Shown here: positions 56,568-57,730 of the stretch, in pieces
Layout: every line of letters starts with the position of its first letter
Numbering within the stretch: position 1 is the first letter of the stretch
From: Escherichia coli O127:H6 str. E2348/69
GTDB taxonomy: Bacteria > Pseudomonadota > Gammaproteobacteria > Enterobacterales > Enterobacteriaceae
NCBI RefSeq assembly: GCF_000026545.1
Contig: NC_011601.1
Strand: one strand, 5' to 3'
DNA length: 64,000 bases
The notes under the pieces: model-generated
The model's database searches: none
The model's input: the letters and a program-made list of their open reading frames with translations, nothing else
Told to the model about the DNA's origin: nothing
Program-made: the position numbers and the translations under genes

Positions 56568-56786
56568 TTAGCGAATAAATTTCCATACTGAGGAAGGGAT
56601 CTTGTCGTACAGTTTATTCATGGTCAATTCGGCGAGGCGGTGATCTGCGGCTGAGTAAAATACCGCCAGTTCATTATCTGATAATTCGTATTTATTTTTC
56701 TCGATAACACGCTCCAGCGTGTCAATTGTCTGGCAACGACGTAAACGCATTAAATAATCGGTTTTCGTTAAAGGTTTTTCGGACAT
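56568..56786 (-). CDS. hha: haemolysin-expression-modulating protein Hha
   Basis: C-terminal 72 aa of ORF 56568..57032 ([27 protein letters not shown]...), start ATG 56786. Confidence 0.93.
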
Positions 56787-56811
56787 ACTTCTACCCATGG
56801 TTGTAATAATT

Positions 56812-57186
56812 CTAACAAGATAAACTCGCAGGATTCTCTTTCGTCGCATTGACAAAACAACGGAATAGTCGATTACCTGACTTCCGCCATTTCTGAAGAT
56901 CCTGCATATTAATACCATAACTACTGAACAACATAAAGGTGTCATCCAGATATTCGTCGATCTGCTCAATGAGCTTATTGTCTTCATTATACTTAATTTT
57001 GTAATTAAGTGCGAAGGTCGCAATATGCTCAATCAGTTCATTCAACTGGAGGTTGATCGCCGAGGTTGGGTCGTTAACCCAGCCATGATTGCTTTCTTCA
57101 AGGTTTGCAAGGCAGTCATGATACAGGGTTTCACAGAGAAACTTAAGCTGTGCGATATCATGTCTTTTGGGTGAGTATTCATCCAT
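56812..57186 (-). CDS. tomB: Hha toxicity modulator TomB (YbaJ)
   Basis: 124-aa ORF immediately upstream of hha, recognised as TomB. Confidence 0.92.
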
Positions 57187-57686
57187 AACGCGTCCCCTTC
57201 TTAGCGGTTGAACTAACGGACACCTTTCGGGATGGAAAAAACTTACTGACCTGGACTTGCCCTCTCGTTTGTTAGCTTAACTATAAGCCACTCTTTGTAG
57301 GTTTTCATCGCATTATTACGAAAAATTACAATTAGGAAGGAAGCGGGACAGGACTCACTTTTTCATACTAGCACCAACCCGCAGCAGGTAAAAGCAGTTT
57401 GCTCGAACTGTTCATAACATTTCAGAATTATCGCCAGAAGAAATCGGTGACACTAATACCAGGATTGCTCTGAATATGACGTAATAACCGAGGAATGAAT
57501 AAAGAATTACCGCAAATAATTAAGAATAGCCTCTAAATGGTTATGGATTATTAAATCTATTAGCGCTACTTAATATAAATTAACTAACAATCAGTATTTT
57601 TTATGAATTTTATGCGGGGTTAATACTGGTTTTCGTATGGGATCCTGAGTTGGTGGTTCAATACTCCTTAATGTTCGTAGGTTATG

Positions 57687-57712
57687 TATAAAAAAGGCCG
57701 CTTGCGCGGCCT
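57687..57712 (-). terminator. intrinsic terminator after acrB
   Basis: aggccgc-ttgc-gcggcct hairpin followed by a U-run on the minus strand (A-run 57689..57695 on plus). Confidence 0.75.
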
Positions 57713-57730
57713 TAGTGATTACACGTTGTA

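Follow-up and report, generated by a model that had tools for sequence, protein, structure and literature searches.

The 544 bp between acrB and tomB in Escherichia coli O127:H6 str. E2348/69 (57187..57730) most probably form the transcription-control region of tomB-hha, situated behind the acrB terminator, with no separate gene for a small RNA or small protein inside. Positions are those of the window, i.e. the whole 64,000-nucleotide stretch of contig NC_011601.1 that was analysed. Going by its sequence features, the spacer can be read on the minus strand as the acrB 3′ UTR and terminator (45 bp), a segment restricted to Escherichia (74 bp), a distal AT-rich block (~130 bp), ~150 bp of poorly conserved DNA, a CpxR-type repeat, the promoter ATGAAA-17-TATAGT and an 87-nt leader. 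With this arrangement, phosphorylated CpxR would activate the tomB promoter (ptomB) from a GTAA-N6-GTAA repeat and H-NS, nucleating on the distal AT-rich block, would dampen it, while the remaining length would represent loosely constrained DNA that carries no gene.

The locus and the acrB-tomB spacer

The genes and the segments of the spacer are the following.

56568..56786, minus strand: hha, 72 aa (open reading frame list and RefSeq annotation)
56812..57186, minus strand: tomB (ybaJ), 124 aa (open reading frame list and RefSeq annotation)
57187..57273, minus strand: tomB 5′ UTR, 87 nt, with the Shine-Dalgarno sequence GGGG at 57197..57194 and CCATCCC at 57236..57230
57273 (A+1) and 57274 (T-1), minus strand: tomB start site, in the T-1A+1 context of primer-dependent initiation
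57308..57280, minus strand: sigma-70 promoter ptomB from the promoter scan, -35 ATGAAA at 57308..57303, 17-bp spacer, -10 TATAGT at 57285..57280
57329..57316, minus strand: CpxR-type direct repeat GTAATTTTTCGTAA (GTAA-N6-GTAA), centred near -49.5, just upstream of the -35
57333..57479, no strand: poorly conserved middle segment, where Escherichia clades differ by indels and by 27-35% substitutions
57473..57459, minus strand: degenerate RcsB-box-like sequence TCAGAGCAATCCTGG, of which only the GA-N4-TC core is kept in E. coli
57480..57611, no strand: distal block rich in AT (68-78%) and in TpA, with moderate conservation across the family
57612..57685, no strand: Escherichia-specific segment, 74 bp, absent from other genera
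57686..57730, minus strand: acrB 3′ UTR and intrinsic terminator from the terminator scan, 45 bp, stem at 57713..57694 followed by a T run
57731..60880, minus strand: acrB, 1049 aa, the upstream neighbour of tomB

The positions of hha, tomB and acrB given in an earlier note on this DNA are exact by both the open reading frames and RefSeq. That hha-tomB is a known pair, as the note had also said, agrees with the matches of the two proteins to the Pfam families HHA (PF05321; E = 8.2e-40, 135 bits, where the cutoff is 25) and YbaJ (PF10757; E = 1e-65). The hha gene lies 25 nt downstream of tomB on the same strand, and the two genes are paired in 80/80 related loci. Shimada et al. give the operon as tomB-hha (PMC3946193), and Clarke et al. 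used a tomB/hha RNA extending from -89 to +662, which covers both genes, as an RNase E substrate (PMC4191395). This substrate agrees with a 5′ end at -87 and with tomB-hha co-transcription. The 1.5-kb region around the locus matches E2348/69 at 100% identity, and at least 80% of it is present in 5415 of 5426 complete E. coli genomes.

The gap between acrB and tomB is indeed long and AT-rich. Its GC content is 38.6%, whereas the window as a whole has 51.4%. In the half nearer to acrB, GC drops to 31-34%, and AT peaks at 78% in 57537..57586. The 300-bp windows of the spacer are among those with the lowest GC in the 64 kb and are equalled only by 26515..26973. RefSeq has no features in the spacer in E2348/69, in K-12 MG1655 (where the counterpart is 480,709-481,253) or in the other E. 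coli among the matches listed. The statement that the gap contains no open reading frame is true for frames of at least 60 aa, but frames of 13-24 aa sit inside it; in addition, a 47-aa frame with a TTG start extends from the gap into acrB.

The acrB terminator had been taken as the boundary of the gap. It is located inside 57187..57730, since 57730 is the base that adjoins the acrB stop codon. The terminator hairpin is kept across genera with changes on both arms, and has an MFE z-score of -3.6. It is not bidirectional, because the plus strand has no T run after the stem.

For a survey of species, one genome per species with TomB was taken, which gave 80 loci from Escherichia, Citrobacter, Salmonella, Enterobacter, Klebsiella, Raoultella, Kluyvera, Kosakonia, Trabulsiella, Yokenella and other genera. 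The 78 sequences compared consist of the 76 loci that include the end of acrB, together with K-12 and the window. acrB is upstream of tomB in 78/78 Enterobacteriaceae species, with a spacer of 435-559 bp and 35-40% GC. As the layout is the same in all 78, the architecture is ancestral and not an oddity of one strain. The length of 435-559 bp is kept even though much of the spacer sequence diverges.

Sequence conservation in the 78 species is confined to ~150 bp beside the promoter and to one distal AT-rich block. Conservation is nearly complete from 57332 to the tomB ATG; the promoter, the CpxR-type box and the leader reach scores of 8-10 (maximum 10) in the comparison of genera, and elsewhere conservation is patchy or absent. 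The whole spacer of E2348/69 differs from that of K-12 by 12 substitutions and 1 indel. Relative to other Escherichia clades, substitutions in the promoter amount to 8.5% (15% against E. albertii). The tomB leader has 0 substitutions relative to K-12 and 6-8% relative to other Escherichia (10% against E. albertii), and is conserved to the same degree as the coding sequence, where the values against other Escherichia are 4-8% (up to 11% against E. albertii).

The tomB promoter and start site

The promoter scan finds ptomB close to tomB, and the form (A/G)TGAAA-17-TATAGT is retained in 72/78 species. Identical hexamers are given by Shimada et al. (2014) for the constitutive RpoD promoter of tomB-hha (PMC3946193), and published experiments show that RNA polymerase holoenzyme binds the tomB-hha promoter without a helper factor. 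The start of tomB has been mapped by 5′ RNA-seq and primer extension to -87 from the ATG (PMC4488433). The supplement of Druzhinin et al. carries it as the row 'atgcgatgaaaacctgcaaagagtggcttatagttaagctAaca tA 480795 (-) tomB -87' (PMC4488433); in the numbering of the window, MG1655 480795 is 57273, the A that follows T57274. The K-12 promoter of Druzhinin et al. and Shimada et al. shares the -35, the -10, T-1A+1 and the leader with that of E2348/69, and differs from it at one base of the 17-bp spacer, which is G in K-12 and A in E2348/69.

The earlier note had regarded the whole 544 bp as a leader. The published start at -87 and the promoter hexamers at the matching position contradict this: the spacer is not a long leader because the tomB start maps only 87 nt from the ATG, which leaves ~84% of the spacer upstream of the sole documented start.

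Initiation at ptomB has other published characteristics. In stationary phase, part of the ptomB transcripts begin at T57274 and are primed by RNAs of 2-4 nt, termed nanoRNAs; in the T-1A+1 context, such priming at -1 accounts for about half or more of the transcripts made in this phase (PMC4488433). A further characteristic is occupancy by the sigma-S RNA polymerase. The older and the current MG1655 numbering are offset by ~778 bp, which puts the centre of the sigma-S peak on the tomB start at 57273. The peak was found by ChIP-seq at 479,920-480,115 and assigned to tomB (PMC4447067).

A CpxR-type repeat upstream of the -35

The direct repeat GTAATTTTTCGTAA is exact in 65/78 species, and the other 13 are off by one base, except for locus L080, where two bases differ. 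The pattern GTAA-N6-GTAA has only 2 matches on both strands of the 64 kb. By its resemblance to the published CpxR consensus, GTAATTTTTCGTAA is a putative CpxR operator. CpxR-activated promoters such as those of cpxP and degP have GTAAA-N5-GTAAA upstream of the -35; tomB has GTAAT-TTTTC-GTAAT, also upstream of the -35 and centred near -49.5, but its half-sites end in T, whereas those of the cpxP and degP promoters end in A.

RegulonDB assigns both tomB and hha to the CpxR regulon, and the CpxR iModulon includes tomB (PMC7657598). However, tomB is absent from the direct targets of CpxR determined by ChIP-exo (PMC7657598). Direct CpxR binding is therefore based on RegulonDB and on the conserved box.

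H-NS and the distal AT-rich block

Genomic SELEX flags in vitro binding of H-NS in the tomB-acrB spacer (PMC3946193). The distal block at 57480..57611 is likely to be the seat of this binding. There are 12.4 TpA steps per 100 bp in 57400..57690, which contains the block, compared with 4.4 in the window, and the TpA-rich character of the block fits the reported binding. The H-NS high-affinity motif TCGATAAATT is not enriched in the distal part of the spacer, with 1 match against 0.76 expected. The block is ~15% diverged between Escherichia clades, versus 27-46% in the neighbouring segments.

The tomB spacer resembles the type-B spacers flagged HNS, which lie upstream of core-gene promoters, in that it is likewise AT- and TpA-rich and lies upstream of a constitutive promoter. 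It differs from horizontally acquired H-NS-bound islands, as it is ancestral, syntenic DNA. No report of H-NS silencing of tomB-hha, or of its derepression in an hns mutant, was found in the literature searched. The description of the gap as an H-NS-silenced, heavily regulated leader thus stands in part: the DNA is AT-rich, it binds H-NS by SELEX, and several layers of control are published for ptomB (the CpxR regulon listing, sigma-S occupancy and nanoRNA priming), but it is not a leader, given the start at -87.

The segments that flank the distal block

Between the CpxR-type repeat and the distal block, the sequence TCAGAGCAATCCTGG is aligned with a palindrome, TAAGAATATTCCTGG, that is present at this position in most other genera. 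RcsB half-sites described for flhDC are TTAGGAA and TCTAAGA (PMC5829831), and TAAGAATATTCCTGG fits both the half-sites and their spacing. From this resemblance we infer that RcsB may bind at the TCAGAGCAATCCTGG/TAAGAATATTCCTGG position. The RcsB-box-like palindrome is strong in other genera and has decayed in E. coli.

On the acrB side of the block, 57612..57685 corresponds to an alignment gap in all non-Escherichia genera, except for an unrelated insert in Raoultella. This segment is ~46% diverged between Escherichia clades. It was considered as a repeat or mobile element and rejected: in 5423 E. coli genomes it occurs only once per genome and carries no annotation. It contains AAGGAG, with no start codon downstream at a workable distance.

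Search for a small RNA or small protein gene

The covariance search for small RNAs that the earlier note had proposed matches no Rfam family in the spacer, even at permissive E-values. The best match (E = 1.9) is terminator-like and far below the gathering score. Sub-threshold matches are to leader, CRISPR and isr families, and those within the spacer all fall on the acrB terminator hairpin. Numbers of promoters and terminators over 56300..58000 equal the shuffle expectation, with ptomB and the acrB terminator the only ones in the spacer; the scan finds no second promoter-terminator pair there that would bound a unit of 50-300 nt. Sliding 100-nt windows on both strands have MFE z-scores from -1.5 to +1.2 outside the windows that hold the acrB terminator.

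Small open reading frames of at least 10 aa, on both strands, number seven, and 0/7 are conserved, each being intact in at most 1/5 other Escherichia and at most 9/72 other species. The one of 21 aa begins on the -35 hexamer and is therefore outside the known tomB mRNA. A frame of 14 codons with a GTG start overlaps the start of tomB; in the alignment it meets a stop after 3 codons in other genera.

The spacer tolerates insertions. A mini-transposon insertion in it was recovered from a 700-generation competition, with doubling time unchanged (PMC5010248), and a few natural isolates have IS elements in the spacer, e.g. IS1.

Alternative explanations

In the earlier note's view, the bulk of the 544 bp would be a long 5′ leader silenced by H-NS, and a small RNA or small protein that has escaped annotation would lie within it. 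One can see the appeal of this, as the spacer is long, AT-rich and unannotated, H-NS binding has been reported for it, small open reading frames of 13-24 aa are present, and a conservation test would miss lineage-specific genes. Nevertheless, the mapped start allows a leader of only 87 nt, the small frames are not conserved and the 21-aa frame is off the known transcript, neither an Rfam match nor a stable fold nor a terminator is found besides that of acrB, and the candidate segments are 27-46% diverged within the genus. Enterobacterial small RNA genes of intergenic or 3′-UTR origin share with the spacer only a long gap that starts at a strong intrinsic terminator; unlike them, the spacer lacks a promoter of its own for such a unit, a second terminator, a conserved structure and a match in Rfam, and the acrB 3′ UTR is just ~45 nt. 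The absence of a conserved frame, an Rfam family, a stable fold apart from the acrB terminator and any excess of promoters or terminators goes against the suggestion, and we regard a hidden gene of this type as very unlikely. A different proposal concerns a second, weaker tomB promoter in the distal block, with a start near 57540-57565 and a leader isoform of ~270-380 nt that might appear, e.g. on relief from H-NS. Three -10-like hexamers in the block, on the tomB strand, keep their position in 62-79% of the 78 species, among them TATATT at 57577..57572 (72%) and AATAAT at 57552..57547 (79%), and the block itself is more conserved than its neighbours. AT-rich DNA bound by H-NS often has promoters, and this general knowledge also speaks for the proposal. 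But hexamers resembling a -10 are expected by chance in DNA of 70-78% AT, none here has an acceptable -35 or a TG extension, and the promoter scan is silent in the distal block. Furthermore, the sigma-S ChIP peak has its centre at the proximal promoter, and the 5′ RNA-seq tables, a filtered list of strong start regions, give one start in the spacer (PMC4488433). A second promoter thus appears unlikely.

The leader itself has been looked at for an anti-Shine-Dalgarno or anti-start element, in which CCAUCCC (57236..57230) would occlude the ribosome binding site, so that TomB translation could be switched, e.g. by temperature or a trans-acting factor. Across 53 aligned species, CCAUCCC does not vary or hardly varies; in the RNAalifold consensus it is paired to both the Shine-Dalgarno GGGG and AUGG, all 7 pairs being present in 53/53 sequences, and the Shine-Dalgarno is paired in single-sequence folds of nearly every species. 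On the other hand, there are 0 compensatory changes in this pairing, the consensus energy is -3.4 kcal/mol, the MFE z-score of the tomB leader is -0.56, and leader folds vary between genera. A shuffle control was carried out with 67 distinct leaders, in which the final 16 nt of the leader and 30 nt from the start of the coding sequence were left intact and the upstream part was dinucleotide-shuffled. The initiation region is as likely to be paired in the native leaders as in the shuffled ones (mean z = 0.02; 36/67 below zero). Together with the lack of compensatory change and the weak energy, this control leaves the structural idea unsupported, and an anti-Shine-Dalgarno element or RNA thermometer was dropped after it; we consider such a switch quite unlikely. 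A CsrA site in the leader was also rejected, as E. coli has no 5′ GGA, and has GGGGACG. In other genera, AUCAGGA is found at the 5′ end of the leader and GGGGAUG at the Shine-Dalgarno.

Biological significance

The promoter of tomB-hha, its start site, the link to CpxR and the binding of H-NS are already in the literature, and this picture is unchanged. It should be pointed out that the rule by which a long AT-rich gap signifies a long leader does not hold for this spacer, given a mapped start only 87 nt before the tomB ATG. The negative outcome is useful in that the acrB-tomB spacer can be removed from lists of candidates for new small RNAs and small proteins.

It is doubtful that the distal block with its -10-like hexamers, the RcsB-box-like palindrome and the invariant CCAUCCC are real regulatory elements that have gone undescribed. 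If they were, tomB-hha might have an upstream promoter that is masked by H-NS and yields a long-leader isoform, or its leader might offer a site for a trans-acting RNA or protein; in either case, the circuit of Hha/H-NS silencing would gain a further level of control. Virulence genes and genes gained by horizontal transfer are silenced by Hha together with H-NS, and TomB opposes Hha. The partnership of Hha and H-NS, and the antagonism by TomB, mean that control of tomB-hha matters for the biology of EPEC.

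Conserved elements in the acrB–tomB spacer

Three -10-like hexamers lie on the tomB strand within 57547..57592 of the acrB–tomB spacer, and their position is conserved in 62–79% of the 78 Enterobacteriaceae species compared. In several other genera the spacer also holds an RcsB-box-like palindrome, approximately 190 bp ahead of the tomB start.

57592..57587, minus strand, -10-like hexamer, conserved in position
57577..57572, minus strand, -10-like hexamer, conserved in position
57552..57547, minus strand, -10-like hexamer, conserved in position
Aligned to 57459..57473, minus strand, RcsB-box-like palindrome TAAGAATATTCCTGG (loci L013, L063, L031, L058, L073 and others of the comparison set)

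No -35 element is recognisable for the three hexamers. They may indicate a further promoter upstream, or simply AT-rich DNA to which protein binds.

The palindrome is kept in Salmonella, Klebsiella, Raoultella, Kosakonia and Kluyvera; the E. coli version is degenerate (TCAGAGCAATCCTGG, 57459..57473, minus strand). No connection between Rcs and tomB was found in the published literature.

An alignment of 53 species shows the motif CCATCCC (57230..57236, minus strand) in the tomB leader, the 87-nt 5′ UTR, to be invariant or nearly so. Its sequence complements the Shine-Dalgarno sequence and the start codon; sequestration of these by CCATCCC was considered, and found no support from a shuffle control.

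A 74-bp segment directly downstream of the acrB terminator (57612..57685) is present in Escherichia only, and Raoultella has an insert of unrelated sequence at this position. The segment occurs as one copy, without annotation, in 5423 E. coli genomes, and diverges by approximately 46% between Escherichia clades.

Other features of the window

The sole other match to the CpxR-box-like repeat GTAA-N6-GTAA in the 64 kb, besides the copy upstream of tomB, is at 1874..1887 (minus strand, GTAAATCTTCGTAA). Only one other stretch matches the spacer in AT-richness (26515..26973, 459 bp, GC 0.355). Probably a further long promoter region, it is flanked by two minus-strand open reading frames, one at 25567..26514 (315 aa) and the other at 26974..28449 (491 aa).

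The gene maa (maltose O-acetyltransferase; 55842..56394, minus strand) appears in E2348/69 as two overlapping open reading frames of 61 and 133 aa and is a frameshifted pseudogene in the RefSeq annotation; its K-12 counterpart is intact (183 aa).

Interruption of the spacer in other E. coli

Among the 5423 E. coli genomes, 16 have no single place that covers 80% of the spacer, and matching places outnumber records by 32. Both the poorly covered genomes and the surplus places are consistent with interruptions of the spacer; strain TUM13773, for example, carries an inserted IS1 there. The following is an example of the spacer in other E. coli genomes.

NZ_CP128912.1, 3688474..3689401, acrB–tomB spacer (H52)

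A laboratory mini-transposon insertion in the spacer was selected during long-term competition (PMC5010248).
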